NCBI GenBank assembly: GCA_045646345.1 | Contig: JAZRKN010000005.1 | Span: 13,594-77,593, forward strand | Source: Candidatus Scatovivens sp. | Lineage (GTDB): Bacteria; Bacillota; Clostridia; TANB77; CAG-508 | Direction of reading: 5' to 3' | Length of the DNA: 64,000 bases | Part shown: positions 15,876 through 63,830 of the stretch, in pieces | How positions within the stretch are numbered: position 1 is the stretch's first letter | Layout of the letters: each line of letters starts with the position of its first letter | Made by a program: the position numbers and the translations under genes | Notes under the pieces: model-generated | Database searches by the model: none | Told to the model about the DNA's origin: nothing | The model's input: the letters and a program-made list of their open reading frames with translations, nothing else

Positions 15876-15878
15876 GGA

Positions 15879-17186
15879 ATGAGTTTTATGAATATATTAG
15901 ATATTATTGAAAATAAAAAAGTTGGAAAAGAATTGTCAAATGAAGAAATTGAATTCTTTGTTGAAAATTATACCAATGGAAGTGTTACAGATTATCAAGC
16001 TGCAGCTTTGATAATGGCAATATGTATTAATGGAATGACCCAAGATGAAATTTTATCATTAACAACTGCAATGGCAAATTCTGGAGATATATTAGATTTA
16101 AGTGATATTTCAGAAAATATTGTAGACAAACACTCAACAGGTGGAGTAGGGGACAAAGTTACATTAATTGTAGCTCCTATAATTGCTGCTCTAGGTATAC
16201 CAGTTGCAAAAATGAGTGGAAGAGGACTTGGAATAACAGGAGGAACTGCAGATAAATTAGAATCAATTCCAGGTTATAATATAAATATTTCTATAGATGA
16301 ATTTAAACAAAATATAAAAGATATTGGAATAAGTTTAATAACTCAAACATTAAATTTAGCACCAGCAGATAAAAAAATTTATGCTTTAAGAGATACAATA
16401 AGCTGTACAAATAGTATGCCTTTAATAGCATCAAGTATAATGAGTAAAAAGATAGCTGCAGGTGCAGGATCAATTGTATTAGATGTAACATGTGGAAGTG
16501 GAGCATTTATGAATACAAAAGAAGAGGCAAAAAAATTAGCTAAATTAATGGCTTTGATTGGAAAATTGGCAGGAAGAGAAACTGTATGTGTGTTAACTGA
16601 TATGGATGAACCTTTAGGCTATTCTGTAGGAAACACATTAGAAGTGATTGAAGCGATAAATGCTTTAAAAGGAAACATGGCTGAAGATGTTAAAGATGTT
16701 GTTTTGAATTTGTCAATTCAAATGATGAATTTATCTGGTTTATATCCAAATCCATTGGAGAATAAATATAAAGTAATGGAAGTTATTGAAAATGGAAAAG
16801 CCTTTGAAAAATTTAGAGAGTTAGTTGAAAGACAAGGTGGAGACATATCATTTATTGATAACCCAGAAAAATTTGAAAAAGCTCCAATAATAATGCCAGT
16901 ACTTGCAGAAGAAGATGGATATGTAGAAGAATTAAATGCTGGTAAAGTTGGAAAAGCAGGATTAGAACTTGGTATTGGAAGAAAACAAAAAGAAGATCCA
17001 ATAGATTATAGAGTTGGATTGATATTTAATAAAAAAGTAGGAGATCAAGTAAAAAGTGGAGATGTTCTAGCATATATACATGCAAATTCTGCTGAAAAAG
17101 CAATGGAATGTGTTGAACAAATTAAAGATGCATATAAATTTGGAAATAGAAAAATTGTAAAGAAAAATATAATAGAAATTATATAA
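15879..17186 (+). CDS. pdp: pyrimidine-nucleoside phosphorylase (paralog 2)
   Basis: DKHSTGGVGDK and GRGLGITGGTADKLESIPG motifs. Colinear with paralog 1. The start may be ATG 15888, which has better RBS spacing. Confidence 0.9.
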   Translation: MSFMNILDIIENKKVGKELSNEEIEFFVENYTNGSVTDYQAAALIMAICINGMTQDEILSLTTAMANSGDILDLSDISENIVDKHSTGGVGDKVTLIVAPIIAALGIPVAKMSGRGLGITGGTADKLESIPGYNINISIDEFKQNIKDIGISLITQTLNLAPADKKIYALRDTISCTNSMPLIASSIMSKKIAAGAGSIVLDVTCGSGAFMNTKEEAKKLAKLMALIGKLAGRETVCVLTDMDEPLGYSVGNTLEVIEAINALKGNMAEDVKDVVLNLSIQMMNLSGLYPNPLENKYKVMEVIENGKAFEKFRELVERQGGDISFIDNPEKFEKAPIIMPVLAEEDGYVEELNAGKVGKAGLELGIGRKQKEDPIDYRVGLIFNKKVGDQVKSGDVLAYIHANSAEKAMECVEQIKDAYKFGNRKIVKKNIIEII

Positions 17187-18758: not shown

Positions 18759-18883
18759 GATAACAAGTAAAGTTATGCTTAAATTCAAAATACACAAGTT
18801 TAGAGGATAATTCCTGGTGTACTAAGCAGACTTTATAGGCACGTTGAAAAATTTATGTTTTGATACAATGGAGGTATCGCTTT

Positions 18884-20047
18884 ATGAAAATGAATGTTAA
18901 GAAAATCACTGTAATCGTTCTGGCTATTCTCTTCGCAATCAACACTGCAGCTACTGCATTCCTTGCACTCTCTGCTAAATCCAATGACAACAACGCAACT
19001 GCTAATGTGGAGGTTATGAATACCTCTGATGGAAAAACTCCAACTGTAACTCCTGAAAAGGAGGAAGCTGACAGAATTCTACTGATTGATGAGTCTGGTT
19101 CTATGAATGTGGACTTCATCATGGGTGTGGATTTTGATGAGACAATCAGATACTCTGACAGCAAAATCACTCAGAATATTTTGGATACTTTAAACGGTGG
19201 AGCTAGCTATGTGGTTTATGTTACAGATATGGAAGCATATCCTATTAGTGATCTGCAGCTTAATGTGGGTAATCATGAAAATGTTTATCTTGCGTTTGCA
19301 ATGACTGAGGAAGTTTCTTATTCTGAAATTGCAAAACACAAAGCTGTTTGGGCAAATGCTCTGAATCAGGAAAATTCTACACTGATTTTTGTGTATCCTG
19401 ATGGTAGTGAAATGGTTGTTTTCGACAATTATTCCGAAGATGTTGCAGAATCTGTGAACATTGAAGATGCTACGAATAACAATCTCTCCATCAAAGTTGA
19501 AGCAAAATCCACAACTGGTGACAGCATCAGTTTTAGAGTTCTGGTTCTGTTCCTTGGCACTATTATTGATTTGTTTTTAATCTTCGGTATCATTATTGCT
19601 GTTCTGATGGATAGAAATGATACTGTAAAAACAGATGGTGGTGTACCTACTGGAATTCAGAAAGCACTGCAGGATACAACAGCAATGGATGGTTCTGCTA
19701 GTGTTGTTGCAGAGTATCAGCAGATGGTTGAGTGGGCTGAGAAAATGGGTGTTTCCGAAGTTTATCGATTTGCGACTGAGGTTAAGAAAATGACTATTGA
19801 GGAAGCAAAGAAGATGAAAGCTGATGGTAATACTCATGGTTGGAAGTGTCTGAAGGAAATGTTTGAGGCTGGAGAACGCAGAATCACCATTGTATCTGAT
19901 ATGGAATTCAACGATGATGAGTCTGTTGTGGCTGGCATCGAATTTGAACATATCAACTTCATTCTTCCTGCTGGGGAAAAGTACAATAAGGAAATCATGG
20001 AGAGGGTATGTAAGATGGCCAAATCCTATAAAGTCGAACGCATCTAA
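18884..20047 (+). CDS. bitopic membrane protein with two vWA/MIDAS-like half-domains (compositionally foreign)
   Basis: GGAGG sits 9 nt before ATG 18884. Signal anchor, LLIDESGSM (DxSxS), central TM helix FRVLVLFLGTIIDLFLIFGIIIAVL, then a second DGSAS ... ITIVSDMEFND. The first 99 nt are about 39% GC, and CTG/ATC codons are used. Confidence 0.6.
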   Translation: MKMNVKKITVIVLAILFAINTAATAFLALSAKSNDNNATANVEVMNTSDGKTPTVTPEKEEADRILLIDESGSMNVDFIMGVDFDETIRYSDSKITQNILDTLNGGASYVVYVTDMEAYPISDLQLNVGNHENVYLAFAMTEEVSYSEIAKHKAVWANALNQENSTLIFVYPDGSEMVVFDNYSEDVAESVNIEDATNNNLSIKVEAKSTTGDSISFRVLVLFLGTIIDLFLIFGIIIAVLMDRNDTVKTDGGVPTGIQKALQDTTAMDGSASVVAEYQQMVEWAEKMGVSEVYRFATEVKKMTIEEAKKMKADGNTHGWKCLKEMFEAGERRITIVSDMEFNDDESVVAGIEFEHINFILPAGEKYNKEIMERVCKMAKSYKVERI

Positions 20048-26958: not shown

Positions 26959-27483
26959 ATGAGAGAAGTAAATGAGCCTGGTAATAGCAATCCGGAAGCT
27001 TTTGAAAGACTTATTAATACTGTAAAAGTTAAATTGTATAAAACAGGAATGGCAATTTTAAAAAATGATGACGATGTATGTGATGCTATTCAAGAAACTT
27101 TAATGAGTGCTTATAAAAATTTTAGTAATTTAAAAGAAGTTCAATTTTTTGATACTTGGATTACAAGAATTCTTATTAATAAATGTTATGACATAATTAA
27201 AAAGAATAAAAAAGTTGCTTATTTAAATGAAAAAATGGAAGTAGAAGCTAATGAATCTTATTATGATAGATATAAAGAAGATTCAACAGTTGAAAGAGTT
27301 TTAAGTCAAATAAATCCTGAATTAAAACTTGTTAGTGTTTTATATTATTATGATGAATTCTCAGTTAAAGAAATCTCCGAAATGCTTAACATCCCAGAAG
27401 GAACAGTAAAATCTAGATTAGCAAGAGCGCGAGACAAAATGTATGAGATATTAAAAATGGAAGAAGGTGAACGCATTGGATAA
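26959..27483 (+). CDS. ECF-family RNA polymerase sigma factor
   Basis: Region 2 (DAIQETLMSAYKNF, WITRILINKCYD) and region 4 (VKEISEMLNIPEGTVKSRLARARDKM). Confidence 0.85.
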   Translation: MREVNEPGNSNPEAFERLINTVKVKLYKTGMAILKNDDDVCDAIQETLMSAYKNFSNLKEVQFFDTWITRILINKCYDIIKKNKKVAYLNEKMEVEANESYYDRYKEDSTVERVLSQINPELKLVSVLYYYDEFSVKEISEMLNIPEGTVKSRLARARDKMYEILKMEEGERIG

Positions 27484-29419
27484 TCAAAAAGATTTTTATA
27501 TTAAAAGCAAATTTAAACAAGACGATTTAATTTCAAAAAATGCAGACGAGGTATTTAATAATTTTTTAAGAGGTGAAATAAAAATGGAAGAAGAAAAAGT
27601 AGTAAATATTAATAATACTACAAAAGAGAAAGAATCGAAAAAAACAAATATAAGAAAAATATTATCAATAGCAGCAACTTTGGTTGTAATCTTTTTAGGA
27701 GCAAACGTTTATGCTGCAACACAAGGATATAATAATATATTTTTTATTATAAATAATTTATTTAATCCAACAGAAATTACAGATCCAAATGAAATATTAA
27801 CAGATAGAGATATTATAATCTCATATAGACCGATTGAAGTAAGCAAAGGTTTAAGTATTCAAATTAACAGATTAATAGTAAAAGATAATGAAGCTGTTCT
27901 TTATTTAGATGTAGAAAATGGTGAGTCTAAAGAAGAAATTGATACAATTGCAGTATATGATATAACAGATGGAAAAAAAGAATTAATAGCAAATCATTCA
28001 GCTTTAAGCAAAAAAGAAGGACGTCATACAGAAGAAATTAAATTAACAAAATTTTCAAATAAAACAGAATCAATTCAATTAGATCTACAAGATAAAGAGT
28101 TTAACAAAGTAATTTCTTTTGAAATTAACTTGGATAAAAAAGAAATTAATATATTATCAGCTTCTGAAAAAGAAATGAAAAAAATATCAGAAGTAGAATT
28201 AAAAGAGTTTTTATCAAAAATAGTAAGAATTAATTTCTTTAAAGATAAAGATGCGTTAACTAAATATCATACAGAACAAGAATACAAAGATGAAATTAAA
28301 GTATTATATGCTTTAGAATTATTGGATAAAGAAAAAGCTAGCTTCGAAGAAGTTCATAAAGTAATAAAAGAATTTACAGGAGAAACTTTTGAAGATCCAA
28401 TAAGCTTAGCCAATATAGTAGTTACCAAATATGATGATGGTTATAAATATGTAACTGAAAAAGATATGCATCAAGTTAAAGCATTGTGTTTAGAAGTTTC
28501 TGATATAAAATATTCTAATGGTATATATACAGTAAGTTGTATATATACATATCCAACAGATGAGGATTATAAAAATAATAAAATAGAAGAATTAGATAAA
28601 TTTACAACAACATTTGAATTTACATTAAATGAAAATTATGAATATACAGAATTTTGTGTATTATCTGTAAATGATTTTGTAAGTAGTTTATATGAAGTAA
28701 GTAAAGAAACAGAAGATGATATTGTAGAAATTCCAGACGAAAATGAAGAAAACAATTCTGAAAATAAAGAAGATAATTCAGATGATAAAGAAGTACCAGA
28801 AAACAACAATGAAAATAACAACCAATCAAATTCAAACGAAAATTCTGGAACAATACCAGAGCCGCCAGCAAATACAAATCCATCAGATAGTACTGTTATA
28901 AATCCAGGAAATGTTGATAATTATGCATCAACAATGGTATGGAATGATTTCTTTACACCAGGATTAAGAGGAAAAATGCCAGCTGGATGGAATATAAAAG
29001 AATTTATAACATCATATAAAGGACAAGAAGATGATGGAAAACTTGCTAAATCAGTATCAGGAGTTGCAATAGGAATAAACAAAGAAACAAACGAAATTGT
29101 AAGATCAAATTTAATAATTAATTTTTATATGCCTGAATTTATAGAAGCAGGAAATACATTAGATTATACAAGAATTGTAGCAAACAGATATAACATGGAA
29201 GCTTCAGAAGCAGGATATACAAGTAATGAAGGTATGGATTGGAAAATGGTTGTAGAACCATATAACAATAGAGAATTTTATTGTCATTATGAACCAATGT
29301 ATGGTAGTGCTGAAGGTGTAGGATATGTTGTAGAAATTATTTGTGACAATTATGATAACTATAAAGTAATAAATATAATTAACTGGATATTCGGAAATTT
29401 AAAAGGAGCATCTTTTTAA
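27467..29419 (+). CDS. putative anti-sigma factor, single TM helix with large extracytoplasmic domain
   Basis: Overlaps the end of the sigma gene by 17 nt. Short cytoplasmic N-terminus, TM helix ILSIAATLVVIFLGANVYA, about 560-aa outside part with an N/E/S-rich linker. Confidence 0.55.
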   Translation: MNALDNQKDFYIKSKFKQDDLISKNADEVFNNFLRGEIKMEEEKVVNINNTTKEKESKKTNIRKILSIAATLVVIFLGANVYAATQGYNNIFFIINNLFNPTEITDPNEILTDRDIIISYRPIEVSKGLSIQINRLIVKDNEAVLYLDVENGESKEEIDTIAVYDITDGKKELIANHSALSKKEGRHTEEIKLTKFSNKTESIQLDLQDKEFNKVISFEINLDKKEINILSASEKEMKKISEVELKEFLSKIVRINFFKDKDALTKYHTEQEYKDEIKVLYALELLDKEKASFEEVHKVIKEFTGETFEDPISLANIVVTKYDDGYKYVTEKDMHQVKALCLEVSDIKYSNGIYTVSCIYTYPTDEDYKNNKIEELDKFTTTFEFTLNENYEYTEFCVLSVNDFVSSLYEVSKETEDDIVEIPDENEENNSENKEDNSDDKEVPENNNENNNQSNSNENSGTIPEPPANTNPSDSTVINPGNVDNYASTMVWNDFFTPGLRGKMPAGWNIKEFITSYKGQEDDGKLAKSVSGVAIGINKETNEIVRSNLIINFYMPEFIEAGNTLDYTRIVANRYNMEASEAGYTSNEGMDWKMVVEPYNNREFYCHYEPMYGSAEGVGYVVEIICDNYDNYKVINIINWIFGNLKGASF

Positions 29420-46344: not shown

Positions 46345-47154
46345 ATGAGAAAAAATATTTCGATTATACTAGTAGTATTAATGAGTGTATTATTTGTTTT
46401 TACTGGATGCAGTGAAACTGATAATACAACTACAACATCATCTTCAAATAATATAAACACTACTCAAACAAATACAGTAGATGAAGCAGAAATTGAAGAG
46501 GGAGAAAAAATTCTAAACGAATTTGATTATAAAACTGCTGCAGATAAGCAAATGGCAATGCCACAAGATGGAGAAACAGTTGCTACTATAAAAGTAAAAG
46601 GTTATGGAGATATTAAAGTTAAATTCTTTCCGGAAATAGCACCTAAAGCAGTAGAAAATTTTACTACACATGCAAAAAATGGTTATTATAACGGAGTAAC
46701 ATTCCATAGAGTAATAGATGAATTTATGATTCAAGGTGGAGACCCAGAAGGAACAGGTATGGGAGGAGAAAGTATTTGGGGAACAGGATTTGGCCCAGAA
46801 CTTGCTCTTGAATTAGTTCCGTATAGAGGATCTCTATGTATGGCTATGTCAAGTTTGCCAAATAGTATTGGTAGTCAATTTTTTATAACACAAGCTAATT
46901 ATTCTGATTATATTAACTCATATTATAAAAGTTCAGGTTTTCCAGCTGGATTGTTAGAACAATATAAAATTCATGGTGGATATATAGGTTTATATTTACA
47001 ATATACTGTTTTTGGACAAGTATACGAAGGAATGGATGTAGTTGATAGAATTGCTAAAGTAACAACTTATTCAGAAGAAGAGGGACAAGCAGACAAACCT
47101 AAAAAAGATGTAATTATAGAAAAAATAGAAGTTACAACTTATAAAGGAAAATAA
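46345..47154 (+). CDS. cyclophilin-type peptidyl-prolyl isomerase, lipoprotein
   Basis: Lipobox FTGC. FHRVIDEFMIQGGDP and SQFFIT motifs. ATG 46345 follows GGGAGG. Confidence 0.88.
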   Translation: MRKNISIILVVLMSVLFVFTGCSETDNTTTTSSSNNINTTQTNTVDEAEIEEGEKILNEFDYKTAADKQMAMPQDGETVATIKVKGYGDIKVKFFPEIAPKAVENFTTHAKNGYYNGVTFHRVIDEFMIQGGDPEGTGMGGESIWGTGFGPELALELVPYRGSLCMAMSSLPNSIGSQFFITQANYSDYINSYYKSSGFPAGLLEQYKIHGGYIGLYLQYTVFGQVYEGMDVVDRIAKVTTYSEEEGQADKPKKDVIIEKIEVTTYKGK

Positions 47155-47161
47155 ATTTAAA

Positions 47162-47194
47162 ATGGATACTTTTAAAAAAGAGTATCCATTTTTT
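47162..47194 (+). terminator. intrinsic terminator
   Basis: Stem atggatact/agtatccat plus T5. Confidence 0.75.
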
Positions 47195-47219
47195 AGGAAT
47201 TGGGTAAAGGAGAAATAAA

Positions 47220-48479
47220 ATGTATAAAGAATTTGGAATAAGAGATGAAATTATTAATGTTTCAAACGAAGTAGAAAAAGAATTAGAGCCAATATTTGCA
47301 GAATATGAAAAAAATTGCTTGAATTCTAGTATGAAAGTTTTAAAAGCGTTTCAAGATAATAGAGTATCAACAACTGATTTTAATGAAGTGACAGGATATG
47401 GATATTATGATGGAGGAAGAGAAAAATTAGAAAAAATTTATGCTCAAATATTTGGAGCTGAAGATGCTTTAGTTAGACCTCAAATAATGTCAGGAACACA
47501 TGCTTTAACAATAACATTGTTTGGTTTATTAAAATATGGAGATACTATGATTAGTATTTCAGGAGAACCATACGATACTTTAAAAAGCGTTATAGGACTT
47601 TCTGGAAATAGCGAAAATTCTTTAATAAAACACGGAATTAAATATGAACAAATTGAATTAGTTGATAATGATTTTGATTACGACAAAATCGAAGAGAGAG
47701 CAAAACAAGGAAATATAAAATTAATAGAAATACAACGTTCAAAAGGATATTCTCAAAGAAAAAGTTTGACAATGGATAAAATAGAAAAAGTAATTTCTAG
47801 AATAAAAGCTGTTAACAAAGATGTAATAGTGATGGTAGATAATTGCTATGGAGAATTTGTAGAAGATAAAGAACCAACACAAGTTGGTGCTGATATTTTT
47901 ATCAGTTCATTAATGAAAAACTTAGGTGCAGGTATTGCAACAAGTGGTGGATATGTTGTTGGAAGAAAAGATCTTGTTCATCAAGTTGCAGAAAGACTAA
48001 CTGCGCCTTGCATAGGAAAAGATTTAGGTGCTAACTTTAACCAATTATTAGCTTATTATAAAGGAATATTTATGGCTCCATCTGTTGTAAAATCAGTACT
48101 AAAAACAATGACTTATGCGAGCAGAATGTTAGAAAAATATGGTTTCGAAGGCGTTAGCCCAAGATATGATGAAAAAAGAACTGATATTATTCAAACAATT
48201 GAATTGAAAACAGCAGAAAAATTAATAAAATTTTGTCAAGGAGTACAAAAAGGGTCACCGATTGAATCTTATGTAATACCTGTACCCGATGACATGCCGG
48301 GATATGAACATAAAGAAATTATGGCTGGAGGAAGTTTTACACCAGGAGCAACTATTGAATTAAGTTGCGATGGTCCTGTATGTGAACCATATACAGCATA
48401 CATGCAAGGCGGATTAACTTACGAGTACGGCAAACTTGGGATTATGATGGCTATCGAAAGTATGCTTTCAGAAGAATAA
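47220..48479 (+). CDS. ynbB: YnbB/aluminium-resistance family PLP-dependent enzyme
   Basis: SLMKNLGAGIATSGGYVVG is typical of the Met_gamma_lyase/YnbB family; 419 aa. Confidence 0.75.
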   Translation: MYKEFGIRDEIINVSNEVEKELEPIFAEYEKNCLNSSMKVLKAFQDNRVSTTDFNEVTGYGYYDGGREKLEKIYAQIFGAEDALVRPQIMSGTHALTITLFGLLKYGDTMISISGEPYDTLKSVIGLSGNSENSLIKHGIKYEQIELVDNDFDYDKIEERAKQGNIKLIEIQRSKGYSQRKSLTMDKIEKVISRIKAVNKDVIVMVDNCYGEFVEDKEPTQVGADIFISSLMKNLGAGIATSGGYVVGRKDLVHQVAERLTAPCIGKDLGANFNQLLAYYKGIFMAPSVVKSVLKTMTYASRMLEKYGFEGVSPRYDEKRTDIIQTIELKTAEKLIKFCQGVQKGSPIESYVIPVPDDMPGYEHKEIMAGGSFTPGATIELSCDGPVCEPYTAYMQGGLTYEYGKLGIMMAIESMLSEE

Positions 48480-48659
48480 AATTGGTTTGACAAAAAATAA
48501 TATTAAGATTAAAATTATTATGAATATTTTACAATCAAAGTGTTATCAAAAAAATTGATAAATTTGGTAATTTTAGGTTGATATTTTCTACAATATATAG
48601 TATTATATTATATGTATAATATTGGAAAAAATTAGCCTAAAGGGGGTTTTTTATAAATT

Positions 48660-49079
48660 ATGGTAAAGAAAATATCAATGGTTGTAATAATTTTTGCAAT
48701 GCTAGTTGGAGTGTTAACAATTTTTTCTTGTAGCGCTTATGCTGTTACGGGAGAACAAGTTTTAAACTCTACACAAGCAACAGAATTAGTAGAAATTAAA
48801 GAAACAACAAAAGGAAAATTAGCTGAATATATTGAAAAATATGGCTCAACACCATTTGGAGTAGCAGCTTACGTTTTAAATGTCGTAAGAATTTATAGTA
48901 TTCCATTTTGTTTTGTTGGTATTGCCTTAGGTTCAATATTTCAATATGTATTAGGTATTAGAAAATTGGACGTTAGAGATAGAGGTTTTATGCTTATTAT
49001 CACTTTCGTAACAATTTTATTAATATGCCAAGTATTACCATTAATATTTGCTATAGTAGTAAATGGTTGGAGGGGTTAA
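48660..49079 (+). CDS. signal-peptide protein with two C-terminal TM helices
   Basis: Signal peptide MVKKISMVVIIFAMLVGVLTIFSCSAYA, then a soluble segment, then two hydrophobic helices. Its 3' end is adjacent to the next gene. Confidence 0.5.
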   Translation: MVKKISMVVIIFAMLVGVLTIFSCSAYAVTGEQVLNSTQATELVEIKETTKGKLAEYIEKYGSTPFGVAAYVLNVVRIYSIPFCFVGIALGSIFQYVLGIRKLDVRDRGFMLIITFVTILLICQVLPLIFAIVVNGWRG

Positions 49080-49083
49080 ACAA

Positions 49084-52000
49084 ATGAAAGTTTTATTTGC
49101 GGTTAATAGTGAGAAAATTTCTGAAGCGATTATTAAGAAATATCAAAAAGATTATAAAGAAATTCTTTCTTATAAGAATGTATATTACTTTAACGCAATA
49201 TTAAAAGAGATACAAAAAGATAAAAGTTATGATAGAATAATTATACATGAAGAATTAGAGTCTTTCTCTAATAACAATTATGATGCAATAGATAAATTTA
49301 TCTTTGAAAAACTTGATGATATTAGCGATGAAGCACAAGATATAGATGGAAATGAAACATCTATAATTTTTCTTTGTGCCAATAGACGTACAAAAGGTAG
49401 TTCATTTTTAGTTAAATTATTTGGAATTGGAATTTACAATGCTATTTTAGCTAGTGACCAAAGTGTTGAACAAATATGTAAATTAATTAACAAACCAAAA
49501 CTAAAAAAAGAAGCTAAAATGTATTACCAAATAGATTCTGATGAAGTTAATTATTCTAATAAAAGTTCAGAAGAAGTAAGTGAACTTGAAATTCAAAATA
49601 TATTAACTCACTTCAAAAAATTAGGAAAAAATACAGATAAATTTGCTGATAGCTTTAATAATATAGCTTCACAATACACAGACGATCAATTAAAAATTAT
49701 TGTTAATTGTTTACCAAACAATGTAAAAGTTGTTCTTGAAGATGATTGTAAAAAATATCAAGAACTAATGTCTGGTGAAGGTGGAATAAAAAAAGTAAAT
49801 AGAGGCGAAAGTATAAACAGAGAAGCTAGAAAACAAGCTGGAATAAAAATAGATCTTATAGAAAATAAAATGAATACTAATAAAATGTCTGGACCTATAG
49901 TTATACCATCTTCTGTTAGAACTTCAAAAAATAAAGGACCAGCTCCAGTTAGACCTATGGGTAATAATATAGAAATACCTACAGTAAAATCAGGAGAAGA
50001 ACGAACAAAGAAAATTGTAAAAAAATCTGAATTACAACAAATGAAATCTGGTATAGCACAAGCTAAGCCTGTTAGACAAGAGGGAATTGGTGGACAAAAA
50101 GTTGCGGTTCAACCAAAAACAAATCCAGTAGCTACAGAAAAAACTGTATCAAAAGTGGCTCCAGAAAATAGAGTTGCAAGACCAGTAGCTCCTCAAGTAA
50201 AAAAAGAGCAAGTGCCACCAATAAACTTGAGTAAAACACCAAAAGCTGTTGTTACAGATCCAGCTGAAAAGAAAGGTAGAGGAAGACCAAAAAAAGTCGA
50301 ACCTCAAATTATAGAAGAAGATGAAGATTTAGATGATATCATGTTACCAGGAATGATTGAAGATTTCGAGGATGACGAATTGATATTACCAGAATCTCAA
50401 GCGCCTTCTTTTGAAGAAGATTTATTATCAGACATGGAAGATGATTCTTTAGAAAGTGAAGAAGAATTCTTACCAGGAATGATTGAAGATTCATTAGAAG
50501 AGGACGAAGAATTTTTACCAGGAATGGAAGAAGATTCATTAGAAGAAGATGAAGAATTCTTGCCAGGAATGGAAGAAGATTCATTAGAAGAAGACGAAGA
50601 ATTTTTACCAGGAATGGAAGAAGATTCATTAGAAGAAGATGAAGAGTTTTTACCAGGAATGGAAGAAGATTCATTAGAAGAAGACGAAGAACTATTACCA
50701 GGAATGGAAGAAGATTCATTAGAAGAAGACGAAGAATTTTTACCAGGAATGGAAGAAGATTCATTAGAAGAAGACGAAGAATTTTTACCAGGAATGGAAG
50801 AAGATTCATTAGAAGAAGATGAAGAATTCTTGCCAGGAATGGAAGAAGATTCATTAGAAGAAGACGAAGAACTATTACCAGGAATGGAAGAAGACTCATT
50901 AGAAGAAGATGATGAATTTATTCCAGACATGGAAGATGATTTTGATGATGATTTCCTACCATCTATGGGCGATGATTTTGAAGATTTTGAAGAAGATACA
51001 TTACCTGTAATGGAAGAAGAATTCGAAACAGTTGATGAAACCTTACCAAGTGCTGATGAAGTGATTGAAGAAGTGGAAGAATATACCGAAGAAGTTGCAC
51101 TACCAGGACTTGATGAATTAGATGATTTAGAAGATATTGAAGCGTCTAATGAAACAAGTATAGATGAAATATTACCAGGTGTTGGTGATGATTTTGAAGG
51201 TGAAGATGATGACTTATTAGCAGGATTTGAAGGTGATGATTTTAATGTAGAGCCAGCACAAGCAAATCAAGTAAATAAATCAACAGAAATAGAAAGTATC
51301 AAACCAAAAGTTGATTATTCAATGTCAAGTTTAAATAGTTTATTAACTAAGGATAAGAAGATAGTAACTTTTGTAGGAACAAGTAAAAATGGAACATCAT
51401 TCTTAATTAATACATTAGCAGCATTGTTCGCTTCATTAGGAATAAATACTGCAATTTTAGATATGACAAAAAATAAAAATTCTTATTACATTTATACAAA
51501 TAATGAAGAAGAATTAAGAAATATTGCATATAATTCAATTAGTAAATTACAAAAAGGATTTGCAGAAGGAATAAAAGTTGGTAAAAACTTAAGTATTTAT
51601 ACAGCATTACCAAATGATGGAAAAGATTATTCAGATGCTGAACCAATCTTATCAACATTAGTTCAAAACCATTCATTAATTTTAATAGATTGTGATTTTG
51701 ATACTGATACATCATATTTTGCAAGTTGCCAAGAAATTTATTTAGTACAATCAATGGATATATTAACAATCCAACCACTAACAGCTTTCTTAAGAAAGTT
51801 AAAAACAGAAGGTGGATTAGAACCAGAAAAAGTTAGAGTTGTAATAAATAAAGAATTAAAAGTTAGAAGTTTAACAACAAAAGCTATAATTGCTGGTATG
51901 TCATTTTATAATGATCCATCAATGTCATTTATGACAGAACTATTTAATAAAGATTTAGTTAAAGCTTGTAGTATACCATTTGATGAAAGTGCATATTCTA

Positions 52001-52209
52001 AATATTTAGATGCTATGGTAAATTGTAATGTATCAATAAATGGATATTCAAAACAATTTATGAGCAAATTAAGAAATTTAGGAGATATGGTATATCCATT
52101 AGTTGGTAAATCAACATATGGAGGAACAGCTTCACAAACAAATTATGGAAAAAATAACTTTTCAAGTACGACAAATAAAACATTAAATCAAATGAAGAAA
52201 AAATATTAA
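49084..52209 (+). CDS. giant acidic-repeat protein: receiver-like N-domain, AT-hook, (EFLPGMEEDSLEEDE)x10, degenerate ParA/MinD-like C-domain
   Basis: GGAGGGG RBS before ATG 49084. N-terminal MKVLFAVNSEK...DRIIIHEELES beta-alpha pattern. KKGRGRPKK. C-terminal KKIVTFVGTSKNGTSFLINTLAALFASLGINTAILD ... LILIDCD resembles TadZ/CpaE or MinD, but with a non-canonical P-loop. Confidence 0.6.
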   Translation: MKVLFAVNSEKISEAIIKKYQKDYKEILSYKNVYYFNAILKEIQKDKSYDRIIIHEELESFSNNNYDAIDKFIFEKLDDISDEAQDIDGNETSIIFLCANRRTKGSSFLVKLFGIGIYNAILASDQSVEQICKLINKPKLKKEAKMYYQIDSDEVNYSNKSSEEVSELEIQNILTHFKKLGKNTDKFADSFNNIASQYTDDQLKIIVNCLPNNVKVVLEDDCKKYQELMSGEGGIKKVNRGESINREARKQAGIKIDLIENKMNTNKMSGPIVIPSSVRTSKNKGPAPVRPMGNNIEIPTVKSGEERTKKIVKKSELQQMKSGIAQAKPVRQEGIGGQKVAVQPKTNPVATEKTVSKVAPENRVARPVAPQVKKEQVPPINLSKTPKAVVTDPAEKKGRGRPKKVEPQIIEEDEDLDDIMLPGMIEDFEDDELILPESQAPSFEEDLLSDMEDDSLESEEEFLPGMIEDSLEEDEEFLPGMEEDSLEEDEEFLPGMEEDSLEEDEEFLPGMEEDSLEEDEEFLPGMEEDSLEEDEELLPGMEEDSLEEDEEFLPGMEEDSLEEDEEFLPGMEEDSLEEDEEFLPGMEEDSLEEDEELLPGMEEDSLEEDDEFIPDMEDDFDDDFLPSMGDDFEDFEEDTLPVMEEEFETVDETLPSADEVIEEVEEYTEEVALPGLDELDDLEDIEASNETSIDEILPGVGDDFEGEDDDLLAGFEGDDFNVEPAQANQVNKSTEIESIKPKVDYSMSSLNSLLTKDKKIVTFVGTSKNGTSFLINTLAALFASLGINTAILDMTKNKNSYYIYTNNEEELRNIAYNSISKLQKGFAEGIKVGKNLSIYTALPNDGKDYSDAEPILSTLVQNHSLILIDCDFDTDTSYFASCQEIYLVQSMDILTIQPLTAFLRKLKTEGGLEPEKVRVVINKELKVRSLTTKAIIAGMSFYNDPSMSFMTELFNKDLVKACSIPFDESAYSKYLDAMVNCNVSINGYSKQFMSKLRNLGDMVYPLVGKSTYGGTASQTNYGKNNFSSTTNKTLNQMKKKY
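50461..50910 (+). repeat. ten tandem in-frame 45-bp repeats
   Basis: The (t/g)cca of the LP codons recurs at 50471, 50516, 50561 ... 50876, exactly 45 nt apart. The units differ only by a few synonymous or conservative changes. Confidence 0.95.
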
Positions 52210-52228
52210 AATATAGGGGTGAATTGTT

Positions 52229-53365
52229 TTGGTAATAGCAATAATCGCAATCTTAGTTGTAATAATAGGACTTCTTATAATGTATAACGTTCATATTCAA
52301 AAAAAGATTGATACTTATAACAATATAAATCAACAAATAAGTAATCTATCTGTTTTACAAGATTTTATGAAGGTTGCAGGAGAAGAAGATTCTGTAGAAG
52401 CTAAGTTAAATAAAATTAATGAAATAGTTATAGAGCAATATGATATAAAATATTCTACAATAGTAGTTTTTGATGGTGCAGAATATGTAATAAAAGCAAC
52501 AAACGTAGATAAATTACATCATGAAACTCTAACTAATTTACACAACGAGGAAATTTTCCAAGATAGTGTTGCCACAGCAACCCCTAAATATATAACAATA
52601 GAAAATGAAAATGAAAAGCTTCCATATCAAAAAGTAGAAATGGGAAGAGCTAAATCAGCAATGTTTTTCCCACTATATATAGACAATATTTATATAGGAT
52701 ATTGGATTATGGAAAGTGGAAGAATGCATGCATTTGATAAAACTGATACAACTATAATTGAAGTTGTAAAAGATAATATAATTTCTGTGTTATCTACAAT
52801 CTCTTATCAAGATGCTATGGAAAATATTGTTAGAACAGATAAATTCACAGGATTATTTTCTGCAGAATATTTATATAGTAAAGCAAAAAGAACATTTGAT
52901 AAATATCCAACTTCAGCAGTTTGTATGTTTAAAGTTACAAATATCGAAGAGATAAATGAAAAAGCTAGTAGACAAATTGGAAACGATATAATTACAGAAA
53001 TTAGTAATATAGTAAAATCTAAAATGGCTGCTCAATATGTTTTTGTAAGATATATGGGACCTAAATTTGTAATTGTATTTTCTGGAGTTGAAGAAACAAG
53101 TGTTGAAGAATTCTTAAAAGAATTAAAACGCGAAATGGAAGAACTTGAGATTGTTGAAGAGGCAGAAGAAGTTCAAGTAGTAAAAGTAATTAATGGCAAA
53201 AAAGTAAGAGTTAGAGAACTAAAAGAAGAAAAATCAGCATCTCCAAAAATCAATTTTGTAGTATCAACATATTACAAAGGTACAGGAATTGAACAATTAA
53301 ATAAAAAATTAGAAGAATATTTAGATTCAGTTGATAAATCTGAAAATCAAATTAATTATATTTAG
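52229..53365 (+). CDS. TM + GAF-like + degenerate GGDEF-domain protein
   Basis: TTG start after AGGGGTG. RTDKFTGLFSAEYL matches the D-x-LTGL-x-NR entry of GGDEF. YMGPKF replaces the GGDEF signature. Confidence 0.55.
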   Translation: MVIAIIAILVVIIGLLIMYNVHIQKKIDTYNNINQQISNLSVLQDFMKVAGEEDSVEAKLNKINEIVIEQYDIKYSTIVVFDGAEYVIKATNVDKLHHETLTNLHNEEIFQDSVATATPKYITIENENEKLPYQKVEMGRAKSAMFFPLYIDNIYIGYWIMESGRMHAFDKTDTTIIEVVKDNIISVLSTISYQDAMENIVRTDKFTGLFSAEYLYSKAKRTFDKYPTSAVCMFKVTNIEEINEKASRQIGNDIITEISNIVKSKMAAQYVFVRYMGPKFVIVFSGVEETSVEEFLKELKREMEELEIVEEAEEVQVVKVINGKKVRVRELKEEKSASPKINFVVSTYYKGTGIEQLNKKLEEYLDSVDKSENQINYI

Positions 53366-53377
53366 GAGGTAAAGAAT

Positions 53378-53632
53378 ATGGCTATAGACAAGACAATGAG
53401 TTTTAAAGTAGATAAAGATAAGGCCTTAAGAGCTAAAGAAATTTTAAAAGAAGTATACCAAGCGTTGGTAGAAAAAGGGTACAATCCAATTAACCAAATT
53501 GTTGGATATATTTTATCAGGAGATCCTACTTACATTACTAGCCATAATGATGCTAGAAATTTAATAAGATTAATTGAAAGAGATGAACTATTAGAAAAAA
53601 TGGTTAAATCTTATATCGGATTGGAAGACTAA
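53378..53632 (+). CDS. ireB: IreB-family regulatory phosphoprotein (UPF0297)
   Basis: [29 protein letters not shown]. Conserved position upstream of ruvX. Confidence 0.85.
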
Positions 53633-53638
53633 TTATAT

Positions 53639-54058
53639 ATGAGAACTTTAGGTATAGATTATGGAGATAGTAGAGTAGGCATTGCTGTAACAGATGCACT
53701 AGGGATTACTGCGCAAGGATTGGAAACTATAACTCATAATGGTAATGATAAAATTTTACTAAGAAGATTAGATGAGATATTAGAAAAATATCCAGAAGTA
53801 GATACTATTGTTGTTGGTATGCCATATAATATGGATGGTACAAAAACAATAAGAGCTGAAGTTACAGAAAAGTTTATTCATAAATTAAAATGCAAATATA
53901 ATAAACTAAAAATAGAGACAATTGATGAAAGATTAACTACAGTTGCGGCTCATAAAACAATGAATTTTTTAGATGTAAATAAAACTAAAAAAAGAGGTAT
54001 TGTAGATACGATATCTGCAGTTTATATTTTAGAAATGTATATGAATAAAAATAAGTAA
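53639..54058 (+). CDS. ruvX: Holliday-junction resolvase-like nuclease RuvX/YqgF
   Basis: LGIDYGDSRVGIAVTD motif; 139 aa. Confidence 0.9.
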   Translation: MRTLGIDYGDSRVGIAVTDALGITAQGLETITHNGNDKILLRRLDEILEKYPEVDTIVVGMPYNMDGTKTIRAEVTEKFIHKLKCKYNKLKIETIDERLTTVAAHKTMNFLDVNKTKKRGIVDTISAVYILEMYMNKNK

Positions 54059-54171
54059 TACGAATAGATTTAAAAAAACTATAAATAATCAAAAAAAGTA
54101 TTGCAAAAAGAATATGTTTAGTATATTATATTTTTAGATTTGTATTGATATACAAAGGAAGGAGATAAAAA

Positions 54172-54477
54172 ATGGACGAAAATTTAGAAGAATTAAGCAA
54201 TATCATAATATTAAACGATGAAAATGGAAACGAAGTACAATTTGAATTTTTAGATTTAATAGAATATGAATCAGAAGAATTCGTAGTATTATTACCAGTT
54301 CTTGAAGAAGGACAAGAAGATGATGGAGAAGTAGTAATATTAAAAGTTGATGATTCAGAAGAAAACAGTGATGAAGAATCATATGTAAGTGTTGATGATG
54401 AAGAAACATTAACAGCAGTATTTGAAATATTTAAAGAAAAATTCAAAGAAGAATTTAACTTTACAGATGGAGAATAA
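54172..54477 (+). CDS. DUF1292 (UPF0473) acidic protein
   Basis: ILNDENGNEVQFEFLDLIEYESEEFVVLLP. Completes the conserved ireB-ruvX-UPF0473 trio. Confidence 0.75.
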   Translation: MDENLEELSNIIILNDENGNEVQFEFLDLIEYESEEFVVLLPVLEEGQEDDGEVVILKVDDSEENSDEESYVSVDDEETLTAVFEIFKEKFKEEFNFTDGE

Positions 54478-54486
54478 TATAAAAAA

Positions 54487-54508
54487 GAGCAGAGTATGCT
54501 CTTTTTTT
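54487..54508 (+). terminator. intrinsic terminator
   Basis: Stem gagca/tgctc plus T7. Confidence 0.6.
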
Positions 54509-54627
54509 GTTGCATTTTATTTAATATATGAAAAATAAAGTTTAAGATGTTTTGGTTTATTTATTGAAATTTATGTTAATGTATGATACACTTTTTTTAT
54601 TAGAGAGATAATTAGGAGGATATACAT

Positions 54628-55098
54628 ATGACAAGTTTATTTAGTTATTTACTTACATTTATGGCAGTAATATTCTGGGTTTTTAGAGCGATAGCTACAT
54701 TACTATATCAATTAGAGGTGGATTTCTTTACAACACCTTTAAATGAGACTTATGAAATTATTGTATTATTTGCAACATTACCTTGTTTAATTTTAGTTGT
54801 TAAAAGAAATATTGTAGGAGCCGCAGCATATTTAGGGTTATATGTTGCTTATTTTGGAAATGCTATATATAAAACTATAACAGGAGCTCAAGAATTTGGT
54901 TTTACAATTGCAAATACTACAGATTTGTTAATAACAAGTGTAGGAATATTAATTGCTTTATTGACATTTTTGGATGTTTTATTTAATAAACATAGAACAT
55001 TAGGAAAAGGAAATAAAAAAGGAGATTGGTTTTATACAAACGAAGCATTTGATAGAGAATTTGACGAAAGAGCTGATAGAAATCAATATAAAATTTAA
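54628..55098 (+). CDS. four-TM membrane protein, hypothetical
   Basis: AGGAGG RBS. Hydrophobic helices and a charged C-terminal tail. Confidence 0.5.
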   Translation: MTSLFSYLLTFMAVIFWVFRAIATLLYQLEVDFFTTPLNETYEIIVLFATLPCLILVVKRNIVGAAAYLGLYVAYFGNAIYKTITGAQEFGFTIANTTDLLITSVGILIALLTFLDVLFNKHRTLGKGNKKGDWFYTNEAFDREFDERADRNQYKI

Positions 55099-55104
55099 TT
55101 ATAA

Positions 55105-55132
55105 AAAGCCTTTGGAAAAACCAAAGGCTTTT
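55105..55132 (+). terminator. intrinsic terminator
   Basis: Stem aaagcctttgg/ccaaaggcttt. Confidence 0.75.
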
Positions 55133-55250
55133 ATATATTTATATAAAAAACAATCTACAACAAGTAGACATAATGTTGAAAATATAATAGACTTTATAAT
55201 AAATATATGATATAATACAAATTGTATTATATTTAGTAGGTGATATATAT

Positions 55251-55583
55251 ATGGAATTAATAATAATTATTGGTGTGATTTTATTAATTTCTTCTTTTTT
55301 CAAAAATACAATAGAAGATAAAACTGAAATCGAAATTGAACCAATAAAACAAAACGACGTTAAAAATAAATTAAAAAAAGTTTTATTAGGAATACTGATG
55401 TTTATTCCGTTGTTTATAGTATATTATTTTGGTTTAGCTCTATTTGGTATGATAATATTAAATGTATTTGTAGGACCAGAAAATAGAGAGTGGGTATATA
55501 GTATGATATTTGCTATTTCTGCATCACCAATATGTGCAGTAATATCAATTTTAAGAATTTTAAATAGAGGAAGAGATAAGTGA
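55251..55583 (+). CDS. small membrane protein, hypothetical
   Basis: 110 aa, three hydrophobic segments. Its stop overlaps the rbgA start (ATGA). Confidence 0.45.
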   Translation: MELIIIIGVILLISSFFKNTIEDKTEIEIEPIKQNDVKNKLKKVLLGILMFIPLFIVYYFGLALFGMIILNVFVGPENREWVYSMIFAISASPICAVISILRILNRGRDK

Positions 55584-62948: not shown

Positions 62949-63830
62949 GTGGAAAAAAACAAAAAAATGTACAAGAATTGCCCTTATGAAGATTTTGGTT
63001 TTTCTTCATGTCGGGTGTGTCCAAATTTTTCAAAATGTTCCAAGAGAAAGGGGGAGCAGATTAAGAAAAGAAAGGAAGATGATTTTAAACAATTTGTTTT
63101 AAAGGTTGAGATCATTCTTGTATTTATGCTGATTATTAGCTTATTTGTCGGCATGTTTGCTGGTTTTACTTCTTTGGCGCAGGAGCTTCCTGATGACAAG
63201 AAGACCCAGAGTGCAGAACCTGCAGAAGGTGTGGGAAGAGAACCTACTAATATCGTTCCAAATGTTCGAGATGAGATTGTGCCAGTGACTACTCCTATAG
63301 TAACAGTAGAGGCTGCTGAATTTGAAAATGCACCGGAATTCTTTGAAGGAATTGAAGTTGTTGATTTAATGAAAGCAAATCCGTTTGGTCCGTGCAAAAA
63401 GTGGATATATATAATTTCTGAAGAAGATATGGAATATATAGCCAGAGTTGTATGGGCAGAAGCTAGGGGGGAATGCCTTGAGGGGCAGGTTGCGGTTGCA
63501 GCTGTCATTTTGAACAGATATTATTCTGGTTTGGGAGTCTTTAATACATCAAGCATTTATGCTGTGGTAACACAGCCTGGTGCTTTTGCAAGTATTAGAG
63601 GAGTTGATGACGCTGATCTTGCTGAGTATCCTGATTGTATGAGAGCCGTTAGATTGGCGTGCCGTGGTTGGGATCCGACAAGAGAGACGTTTGATACTGG
63701 AGCTCTTTATTTCTTCAATCCTGATGGGGTTTATGGCTATCAGGCTAGAATCAGAACAGGCATCGTTGTACACACAATTGGTGGTCATGATTTCCATGTT
63801 GATTTTAACTGGGATGAAGTGAACAAGTAA
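62949..63830 (+). CDS. SleB/Hydrolase_2-family cell-wall hydrolase with Cys-rich N-terminus and TM anchor (compositionally foreign)
   Basis: CPYEDFGFSSCRVCPNFSKC, a TM helix, then VVWAEARGECLEGQVAVAAVILNR ... VVTQPGAFAS ... ALYFFNP. A 100-nt sample is about 43% GC. GTG 62949 or ATG 62967 is the start. Confidence 0.7.
   Translation: MEKNKKMYKNCPYEDFGFSSCRVCPNFSKCSKRKGEQIKKRKEDDFKQFVLKVEIILVFMLIISLFVGMFAGFTSLAQELPDDKKTQSAEPAEGVGREPTNIVPNVRDEIVPVTTPIVTVEAAEFENAPEFFEGIEVVDLMKANPFGPCKKWIYIISEEDMEYIARVVWAEARGECLEGQVAVAAVILNRYYSGLGVFNTSSIYAVVTQPGAFASIRGVDDADLAEYPDCMRAVRLACRGWDPTRETFDTGALYFFNPDGVYGYQARIRTGIVVHTIGGHDFHVDFNWDEVNK

Follow-up and report, generated by a model that had tools for sequence, protein, structure and literature searches.

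What kind of cellular system is built around a protein of more than 1000 amino acids (aa) that belongs to no named family? The question is raised by a locus in a 64-kb stretch of DNA with a low G+C content (0.24–0.35) from Candidatus Scatovivens, one of the uncultured gut Clostridia; this whole stretch is called the window below. Three co-oriented genes follow each other closely at this locus: g1 (48660–49079), which encodes a 139-aa membrane protein, as indicated by the open reading frame (ORF) and an alignment; g2 (49063 or 49084 to 52209); and g3 (52229–53365), which encodes a 378-aa protein with a degenerate GGDEF domain recognized by Pfam. All three are located on the plus strand, as are the protein domains and expression signals described below. 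A first-pass annotation, made from the sequence letters, had described the trio as co-oriented genes of native composition, in agreement with the ORFs found at these positions and with their G+C contents of 0.27–0.31. The likely start codon of g2 is the ATG at 49084, which sits just 3' of a GGAGGGG ribosome-binding site and results in the length of 1041 aa that had been given for the central protein, while g3 starts with TTG after an AGGGG ribosome-binding site. Judging from the predicted folds of its two ends, we interpret g2 as a so far undescribed protein of the MinD/ParA scaffold class that has a TadZ-like architecture.

A large family of unnamed proteins

The full sequence of g2 has no meaningful match in Pfam, NCBIfam, or PDB. 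Matches to Peptidase_S49 and MXKDX were below the respective cutoffs and were rejected, and a look-up of the exact sequence returned no existing record. Nevertheless, g2 has many relatives: 6943 of 8000 scored candidates matched the family, all of them unnamed and without Pfam domains, and clustering at 50% resulted in 348 representatives among 1.84 billion proteins. The family is large yet taxonomically narrow. A constant plan is shared by 83 full-length representatives, consisting of an N-terminal domain that starts with MKVLFAV, a linker, and a C-terminal domain. An outward search that started from a distant C-terminal domain recovered only 14 relatives, again all unnamed. The view of the first-pass annotation that the system is undescribed is borne out by these searches, which placed g2 in no named family, and literature searches found no described system with this architecture, the nearest being the TadZ-like domain of TsfV, a protein of a type VII secretion system (T7SSf).

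The public locus nearest to the window is in a metagenome-assembled genome from roe-deer caecum, with 96% identity in the C-terminal domain of g2, and further close loci are assigned to Candidatus Scatovivens or to an uncultured Clostridia bacterium. For a survey of the gene neighborhood, 80 species-level GTDB loci were fetched, out of at least 343 matching stretches in species-representative genomes. These 80 loci are from separate species genomes, all of uncultured gut Clostridia, and were screened only for the genes that neighbor g2 in the window; the distant loci L082 to L092 were analyzed via gene tables. One short metagenomic contig (L081, 1–3144) carries two g2-like genes in tandem, namely one C-terminal domain (tblastn, 241–1044) directly followed by a gene for a complete 649-aa paralog (P0264, 1195–3144), which suggests that the scaffold gene was duplicated in one distant lineage.

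A MinD/ParA-class domain with a rewired P-loop

The C-terminal domain of g2 (aa 733–1010; 51280–52113) was modeled with AlphaFold (AF2) from an alignment of 40 sequences with identities down to 29%, and the AF2 models of both ends of g2 were compared with PDB structures using Foldseek. The C-terminal model has a predicted local distance difference test (pLDDT) score of 88. All of its top 50 matches are nucleoside triphosphatases of the SIMIBI class (E 2e-8 to 5e-6). They are mostly ParA, MinD, FlhG/FleN, Soj, and NifH structures, the leading ones of which have E-values from 2e-8 to 1e-6, and also include HypB, CooC, and the BchL-type component of dark-operative protochlorophyllide oxidoreductase. 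The structure of TadZ (3fkq) appears at rank 31 (E = 2.3e-6). A modeling check of this kind had been proposed for the suspected ParA/MinD-like C-terminus, and its outcome, with ParA, MinD, and FlhG among the top matches, supports that assignment. When the profile of the C-terminal domain family was compared with PDB, it matched the bacterial tyrosine kinase (BY-kinase) CapB (E = 0.015), where the P-loop and the Walker B motif were in register, and 24 of the 40 relatives weakly matched Pfam CbiA (best E-value 2.3e-5). For g2 of the window itself, no match to CbiA, ParA, or AAA_31 was found at E ≤ 0.1, nor any match to the CpaE or TadZ models of NCBIfam at the same threshold. At the level of sequence, the support from CapB and CbiA thus appears weak but consistent.

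The P-loop of g2, GTSKNGTS at aa 765, had been noticed as non-canonical, and its alignment to MinD confirmed this. With E. coli MinD as the reference, G765-T-S-K768-N-G770-T771-S is aligned to G10-K11-G-G-V-G15-K16-T, so that K11 corresponds to T766 and K16 to T771, and Lys768 occupies the position of MinD G13. Therefore, both MinD lysines are replaced in g2, and the canonical deviant Walker A motif xKGGxGK[ST], with its signature and catalytic lysines, is not found in g2. Nine residues are invariant in all 40 relatives (G765, G770, F773, N776, D793, D869, D871, Q889, and N922); 38 of the 40 have K768 and 38 have T771, and none of them has a lysine at position 771. Almost complete invariance thus extends to the new Lys768, to the glycines, and to the Walker-B/switch aspartates. 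This conservation suggests that the P-loop is not decaying and that a non-canonical site for a nucleotide or another ligand has been retained.

The C-terminal domain is followed by a disordered tail with a basic amphipathic helix (FSSTTNKTLNQMKKKY; aa 1011–1041; 52114–52209), a candidate membrane-targeting element. In the AF2 model, the helix comprises residues 296–308 of the C-terminal domain. Close relatives share the tail consensus FSxxMNxTLNKMKKxY, and distant relatives have KKKGLFGK, RRGLFG, or GGFWRK. Across the family, the mean best hydrophobic moment of the tails is 0.50, versus 0.40 for shuffled sequences, and the last 12 aa have a mean net charge of +2.2. The tail resembles the membrane-targeting helix of MinD and is thus a candidate for membrane binding.

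A pseudo-receiver at the N-terminus, and the question of a Tad pilus

The N-terminal domain (aa 1–150; 49084–49533) is predicted to have the fold of a CheY-like receiver. The pLDDT score of the N-terminal model is 87, with about 95 for the receiver part, which contains five beta/alpha units. The best compact matches in the Foldseek comparison are CpaE (4n0p) and CpaE2 (4myr), with template modeling (TM) scores on the target of 0.63–0.74 and root-mean-square deviations (rmsd) of about 3.5. TadZ (4lda) is a poorer match (target TM score 0.52–0.59, rmsd about 5), and ordinary response regulators come next. Neither the family alignment nor the model revealed an invariant aspartate at the phospho-acceptor position; strand 3 (residues 51–55) is followed by Glu56, which is invariant and sits at the acceptor position. 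The earlier description of a CheY-like N-terminus without an acceptor aspartate is thus in accordance with the model. The identity of this domain came solely from the fold search: Pfam Response_reg did not match the N-terminal domains of 29 relatives, and the profile of the domain found no match in PDB.

The receiver-like domain is followed by a bundle of five helices (aa 167–230; 49582–49773; pLDDT about 90), located at residues 167–180, 184–195, 200–209, 212–221, and 223–230. The full-length response regulators RcsB, NarL, and DesR align over 230–244 columns with low TM scores. These long alignments suggested that the helices 167–230 might be a helix-turn-helix of the LuxR/NarL type, but no support for this reading was found at the level of sequence.

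Both halves of g2 match TadZ/CpaE structures, in line with the architecture that had been recognized at first. It could thus be assumed that g2 is a true TadZ/CpaE protein that serves a Tad (Flp) pilus encoded elsewhere in the genome, with g1 as an accessory membrane component. The combination of a receiver-like domain with an atypical MinD-like domain, and the matches to 4n0p, 4myr, and 4lda at one end and to 3fkq at the other, are what would be expected in this case. However, the Foldseek results place the C-terminal domain no closer to TadZ than to MinD/ParA, and a linker of 61–864 aa and a MinD-like tail are not known as features of TadZ. The gene content also speaks against it. In Pfam scans of the ORFs, the 64-kb window revealed no genes for Tad, a type IV secretion system (T4SS) or conjugation, a type VII secretion system (T7SS), flagella, Min, or Par, and genes for CpaF/TadA, TadB/C, prepilin peptidase, and Flp, the absence of which had been pointed out before, are likewise missing from it. 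In the loci L082 to L092 no tad genes are present within 7–10 kb of g2. Instead, the fixed partners of g2 are g1 and the genes ireB, ruvX, and DUF1292 described below. Judging from the window and these loci, a role of g2 in a Tad pilus is therefore unlikely.

A long linker with AT-hooks and an acidic repeat array

The two folded ends of g2 are connected by a linker of about 500 aa. Across the family, the linker evolves fast and varies in length from 61 to 864 aa. In the branch of the window, a Lys/Pro-rich basic block precedes an acidic one in which LPG[MLFV] motifs are repeated, and distant members have coiled-coil-like sequences or QQPPM repeats instead.

The basic block of g2 (aa 233–404; 49780–50295) is predicted from its composition to be disordered, with 22% K/R and 10% P, and ends in the sequence KKGRGRPKK at aa 398 (50269–50295), which is indeed the canonical AT-hook that had been reported. 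RGRP cores of AT-hooks were found in 58 of 86 linkers of the family, usually as two copies of KRGRGRPRK about 20 aa apart. Just after the helical bundle, the block contains the motif NKMSGPIVIPSS (49873–49914; aa 264–277), with the consensus P(V/I)(V/I)IP(S). The words VIIP, PVII, VVIP, and VIPS are each present in 15–23 of the 86 linkers and are among the most widely shared linker words, and the motif is a candidate docking motif.

The acidic block (aa 405–727; 50296–51264) comprises 323 aa, 48% of which are D/E and none of which is K or R. The first-pass annotation had counted roughly 18 acidic LP(G/S/V)M motifs in this part of the protein; the array is real, and the exact number of (D/E)-x-LP(G/S/V)M-type motifs, counted as [LI]P[GSVD][MLVA], is 17. 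A 45-bp tandem repeat at 50416–50941 (11.7 copies, 89% matches), which encodes FLPGMEEDSLEEDEE units, accounts for 11–12 of the 17. The 60 closest homologs of g2 contain 2–13 LPxM-type motifs, versus 17 here, the largest number seen, and have lengths from 826 to 1016 aa. These variable motif counts and protein lengths suggest that the array expands and contracts quickly. LPG[FLM] motifs recur across the g2 family. Two ORFs antisense to the array, at 50339–50899 and 50397–50930, are by-products of the tandem repeat and not genes.

A six-gene operon with a conserved gene order

The region upstream of g1 contains the sequence TTGACA-17-TAAAAT (48487–48515), a putative promoter of the sigma-70 type. 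It matches 11 of 12 consensus positions and is the best site in a scan of 47000–55000, and both hexamers are conserved in 25 related loci, with a variable spacer, which strengthens its earlier proposal as the promoter. A second upstream element that had been highlighted, the inverted repeat TTATCAA-N5-TTGATAA, is present at 48543–48561. However, in 180 nt of the window about 0.46 perfect inverted repeats of 7 nt, with a spacer of 3–9 nt, are to be expected, the repeat is disrupted in L001, the closest relative, and none of 72 related upstream regions contains it. It is therefore attributed to chance, and a function as operator was rejected. No riboswitch or other known RNA was detected in the 145-nt leader at Rfam gathering thresholds, and the single Rfam match in the whole window is a tRNA-Glu.

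Downstream of g3, three further genes have the same orientation, namely ireB (53378–53632; Pfam IreB, 1.6e-39), ruvX (53639–54058; Pfam RuvX, 3.5e-38), and a DUF1292/yrzB-like gene (54172–54477; Pfam DUF1292, 2.5e-16). Gaps of 12, 6, and 113 nt separate g3 from ireB, ireB from ruvX, and ruvX from DUF1292, respectively. A hairpin resembling an intrinsic terminator, with an 11-bp stem followed by a T-run (54481–54507), is the sole terminator-like site on the plus strand from the promoter to the end of the unit. Because of the tight gene spacing and the single terminator after DUF1292, the unit is best described as a six-gene operon, g1-g2-g3-ireB-ruvX-DUF1292, rather than the self-contained three-gene cluster that had been assumed. 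Two ORFs for small membrane proteins are located 3' of the operon terminator (54628–55583). One of them encodes 156 aa and has no Pfam match, the other one encodes 110 aa and has only a weak match to TctB below the cutoff; most of the 80 related loci have a homolog of the 156-aa protein in the corresponding place.

As far as the contigs reach, none of the 80 GTDB species loci departs from the order g1-g2-g3-ireB-ruvX-DUF1292, and the upstream genes vary. Relatives with 34–42% identity show the arrangement Peptidase_S11 - g1 - g2 - ireB - ruvX - DUF1292 - ynbB, which lacks g3, and a search seeded with a distant g1 recovered the same g1-g2-ireB-ruvX-DUF1292 arrangement. In L086, a relative of intermediate distance, the order is g1-g2-g3-ireB. 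In nearly all related loci of sufficient length, ireB-ruvX-DUF1292 follow g2 or g3. Thus, the conserved core is the g1-g2 pair beside ireB-ruvX-DUF1292, and g3 does not belong to it, because the distant relatives have retained all of these genes without g3. The co-conservation of the trio that had been anticipated therefore holds for all 80 species loci, and fails for g3 in the distant relatives. In six distant loci (L082, L083, L085, L088, L089, and L091) the gene directly 5' of g1 encodes a D,D-carboxypeptidase of the Peptidase_S11/PBP5 type; no Peptidase_S11 gene is present near g1 in the window. The gene ynbB (Met_gamma_lyase family) is located 3' of DUF1292 in the distant lineages and 5' of g1 in the window.

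IreB/ReoM proteins are substrates of PASTA kinases and control peptidoglycan synthesis, enzymes of the Peptidase_S11 family are D,D-carboxypeptidases, and ireB, ruvX, and DUF1292 are vegetative housekeeping genes. The latter argues against a sporulation-specific version of a spatial organizer, in which g1 and g2 would anchor the chromosome or the coat to the pole or to the forespore membrane. Such a role, a special case of the organizer function that we favor below, is improbable, although several genes would fit: spo0A is located 4–5 kb downstream in two distant loci (L083, 12015–12812; L088, 14746–15546), the Peptidase_S11 gene 5' of g1 in distant lineages is of the Dac type, and the window contains the domain of a SleB-type cortex hydrolase (Hydrolase_2; 62949–63830). 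No promoter for a sporulation sigma factor and no sporulation gene is directly linked to the operon, the putative promoter of which looks sigma-70/sigma-A-like. The SleB-type domain in the window and Spo0A near distant loci hint at lineages that form endospores.

A small membrane protein as the constant partner

The g1 protein is predicted to start with a signal peptide, which is followed by a short extracytoplasmic helix and by a hairpin of two transmembrane helices with a basic cytoplasmic loop (GIRKLDVRDRGF). Its gene is always located directly 5' of g2, including in relatives at 23–42% identity. The g1 of the window has no Pfam match, PF18895 (T4SS_pilin) included. Its distant homologs in L082 and L083 reach 20.6 and 16.8 bits against PF18895 (E = 4.9e-4 and 7.5e-3), below the cutoff of 26.6. 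Many distant-branch relatives of g1 (among P0284–P0312) carry a precomputed PF18895 label, and their context is that of g1-g2-ireB and housekeeping genes. Either g1 goes back to a hairpin of the VirB2 type, or PF18895 extends beyond true T4SS pilins.

Another conceivable reading is that g1 and g2 are a domesticated remnant of a Gram-positive conjugation (type IV secretion) system, with g1 as a pilin of the VirB2/TrbC type and g2 as an ATPase of the VirC1/ParA type. The signal peptide and the hairpin topology of g1 fit such an origin, as do the PF18895 matches of the distant branch, whether below the cutoff or in the precomputed annotation. However, matches of short transmembrane hairpins are prone to error, the g1 of the window has none, and the composition of the genes is native. 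No VirB4- or VirD4-type genes, relaxase, or other transfer genes were found beside g1-g2 in the loci with examined gene tables, and in at least 80 species the pair has the same chromosomal place amid housekeeping genes. We therefore regard this origin as highly improbable.

A degenerate GGDEF protein as a lineage-specific addition

The g3 protein has an N-terminal transmembrane helix, a strongly conserved middle domain, and a GGDEF domain at about aa 195–320, which was recognized by Pfam (E = 1.7e-9), by TIGR00254 (1.6e-10), and in a profile comparison with the diguanylate cyclases in PDB (E = 1.5e-12). The position of the GGEEF signature reads YMGPKF, with MGPKF in place of GGEEF. RYMGP[KR]F is found in 62 of 81 g3 orthologs and is invariant in an alignment of 18 sequences. 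The metal-site DxD of the DIDxFK segment is aligned to R/K-I-T, the guanine-contacting aspartate is replaced by asparagine, and an RxxD I-site five residues upstream of the motif is absent, with AAQY or PSQY in its place. The suspicion that g3 is degenerate and probably non-catalytic is thereby substantiated. The conservation of RYMGP[KR]F together with the loss of the catalytic and I-site residues indicates that the domain is under selection, yet is probably neither a cyclase nor a classical receptor of cyclic di-GMP (c-di-GMP).

MinD-like proteins are known to be paired with degenerate GGDEF proteins or c-di-GMP effectors, for example BcsQ with BcsE and FleN with FleQ. By analogy to FleQ-FleN and BcsE-BcsQ-BcsF, the trio could form a module that responds to c-di-GMP, with g3 as the protein that senses or binds the nucleotide and controls g2, a link that had also been considered in the first-pass annotation. 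The GGDEF fold of g3, its co-conservation with g2 in the 80 loci and in L086, and the FleQ-FleN structures among the fold matches of the C-terminal domain of g2 are in favor of such a module. Nevertheless, it has little chance of being correct, and the proposed link is hard to maintain: the active site, the metal-binding aspartate, the guanine-contacting aspartate, and the I-site of g3 are all replaced, the distant g1-g2 lineages lack g3, and the window has no gene for an active cyclase or phosphodiesterase. The membrane-anchored, probably non-catalytic g3 is better described as a lineage-specific addition to the g1-g2 operon.

A possible spatial organizer of the cell

From the folds we infer that the locus has a positioning or scaffolding function, and its role is likely neither pilus assembly nor c-di-GMP signaling. 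Our favored interpretation, put forward tentatively and by analogy, is that the g1-g2 core, a small protein with two transmembrane helices and a large scaffold of the MinD/ParA class, is a spatial organizer of cell division, envelope growth, or the attachment of the nucleoid to the membrane. A role in the envelope or in division is favored because of the functions of IreB/ReoM and Peptidase_S11 named above. In the proposed mechanism, the MinD-like domain would bind a nucleotide with slow or no turnover, and upon binding g2 would dimerize and sit on the membrane via its tail, where it could also dock onto the cytoplasmic loop of g1. The basic block with its AT-hook would hold AT-rich chromosomal DNA. 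The acidic LPxM array might either recruit multiple copies of a partner or fold back onto the basic block and thereby gate DNA binding, and the pseudo-receiver would mediate localization or oligomerization, as in TadZ.

Several points weigh against this interpretation. The functional assignment is built on fold analogy and gene neighborhood, for a family without a characterized homolog, and the adjacency to ireB-ruvX-DUF1292 could be inherited synteny instead of functional coupling. The lack of the canonical lysines could mean that g2 does not bind nucleotides at all. AT-hooks are missing from the distant branch and from some close relatives, and therefore DNA binding may not be a general property of the g2 family. 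In addition, the statistic for the tail is modest, since for the tail of the window alone the observed hydrophobic moment is reached by 5% of the shuffled sequences.

A more specific and more speculative extension, which we consider doubtful, is that g1 and g2 constitute an undescribed cell-organizing system, shared by a large group of gut Clostridia, that bridges the membrane and the AT-rich nucleoid, has the LPxM array as a landing pad, is coupled to IreB and the PASTA kinase, and substitutes for Min or Noc. In that case g2 would be a nucleotide-gated pseudo-ATPase of the MinD class, the tail and g1 would hold the membrane, and the AT-hooks would hold the nucleoid. Together with the IreB/PASTA-kinase pathway, g2 would couple the position of the chromosome to septal or wall synthesis.

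Proteins of the MinD/ParA class are responsible for the placement of division sites, chromosomes, flagella, pili, and organelles, and new branches of the class have tended to reveal new cargo. If the favored interpretation of g1-g2 as a spatial organizer is correct, it would reveal how division or the nucleoid is organized in a gut lineage that is abundant but poorly known, and g2 would provide a naturally occurring P-loop that functions in the absence of the Walker lysine. Furthermore, AT-hooks and a multivalent array of acidic motifs are combined here in one bacterial protein.

Other genes of the window

A Pfam scan of the whole 64 kb revealed many housekeeping genes, including aspS, a clpB-like gene, htrA, rnhB, pdp, an [FeFe] hydrogenase gene, mfd, pepF, a two-component system, pflB/pflA, maf, trmL, a cyclophilin gene, ynbB, rbgA, the gene for mini-RNase III, recN, and the SleB-type hydrolase gene. 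Two adjacent, paralogous genes for pyrimidine-nucleoside phosphorylases (434 and 435 aa; 14571–17186) share the same three Pfam domains. A 395-aa ORF without a Pfam match (18860–20047) is located in the most G+C-rich 2-kb bin (0.354, versus about 0.28 elsewhere). The gene for a sigma factor of the extracytoplasmic function type (Sigma70_r2/r4; 26959–27483) overlaps the start of a 650-aa ORF (27467–29419) without a Pfam match, which may encode an unusually large anti-sigma factor.

Comparison with known systems

The closest architectural parallel to g2 is TadZ/CpaE, which likewise combines a receiver-like domain at the N-terminus, lacking a functional acceptor, with a C-terminal MinD/ParA fold and has a variant Walker A motif without the canonical lysine. 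The two differ in that g2 is located outside a tad locus, contains an additional five-helix bundle, a long disordered linker, and a MinD-like tail, and has g1, followed by ireB-ruvX-DUF1292, as its obligate neighbors. The P-loop of g2 reads GxxKxGT[ST]F, in contrast to the KGG-type loop of TadZ.

MinD and FlhG (FleN) have the same fold as the C-terminal domain (Foldseek E 1e-7 to 1e-6) and also a basic amphipathic C-terminal tail. However, g2 has threonine at the equivalents of both K11 and K16, is four times longer, carries a pseudo-receiver and a charged linker, and has no genes for the partners MinC, MinE, or FlhF in the 64-kb window. With ParA/Soj, g2 shares the ParA fold. Noc tethers DNA to the membrane, and g2 would resemble it in binding both. 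In contrast to ParA and Noc, DNA contact of g2 would be made via AT-hooks in the linker and not via the surface of a ParA dimer or a ParB fold, no parB/parS is found nearby, and AT-hooks are not universal in the g2 family. With a MinD-like protein, a small membrane protein, and degenerate versions of both a receiver and a GGDEF domain, the inventory is reminiscent of BcsQ-BcsE-BcsF and FleN-FleQ; cellulose synthase or flagellar genes are lacking here, however, g3 has no I-site, and the distribution of the domains over the individual proteins is not the same.

In a clostridial T7SSf cluster, TsfV is encoded among T7SS genes and consists of a TadZ-like atypical receiver fused to an AAA+ ATPase (PMC11217815). 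Like g2, it is a protein of Bacillota that combines such a receiver with an ATPase-type domain outside a Tad locus, whereas g2 has a MinD/ParA domain and no EssC or WXG100 neighbors. Because its folds are known and its architecture is TadZ-like, g2 is not a new kind of protein. What sets it apart is an unnamed family without a Pfam model, with a conserved rewiring of the P-loop and with AT-hooks, an acidic array, and a putative membrane tail, and with genetic partners unlike those of any described MinD/ParA subfamily.

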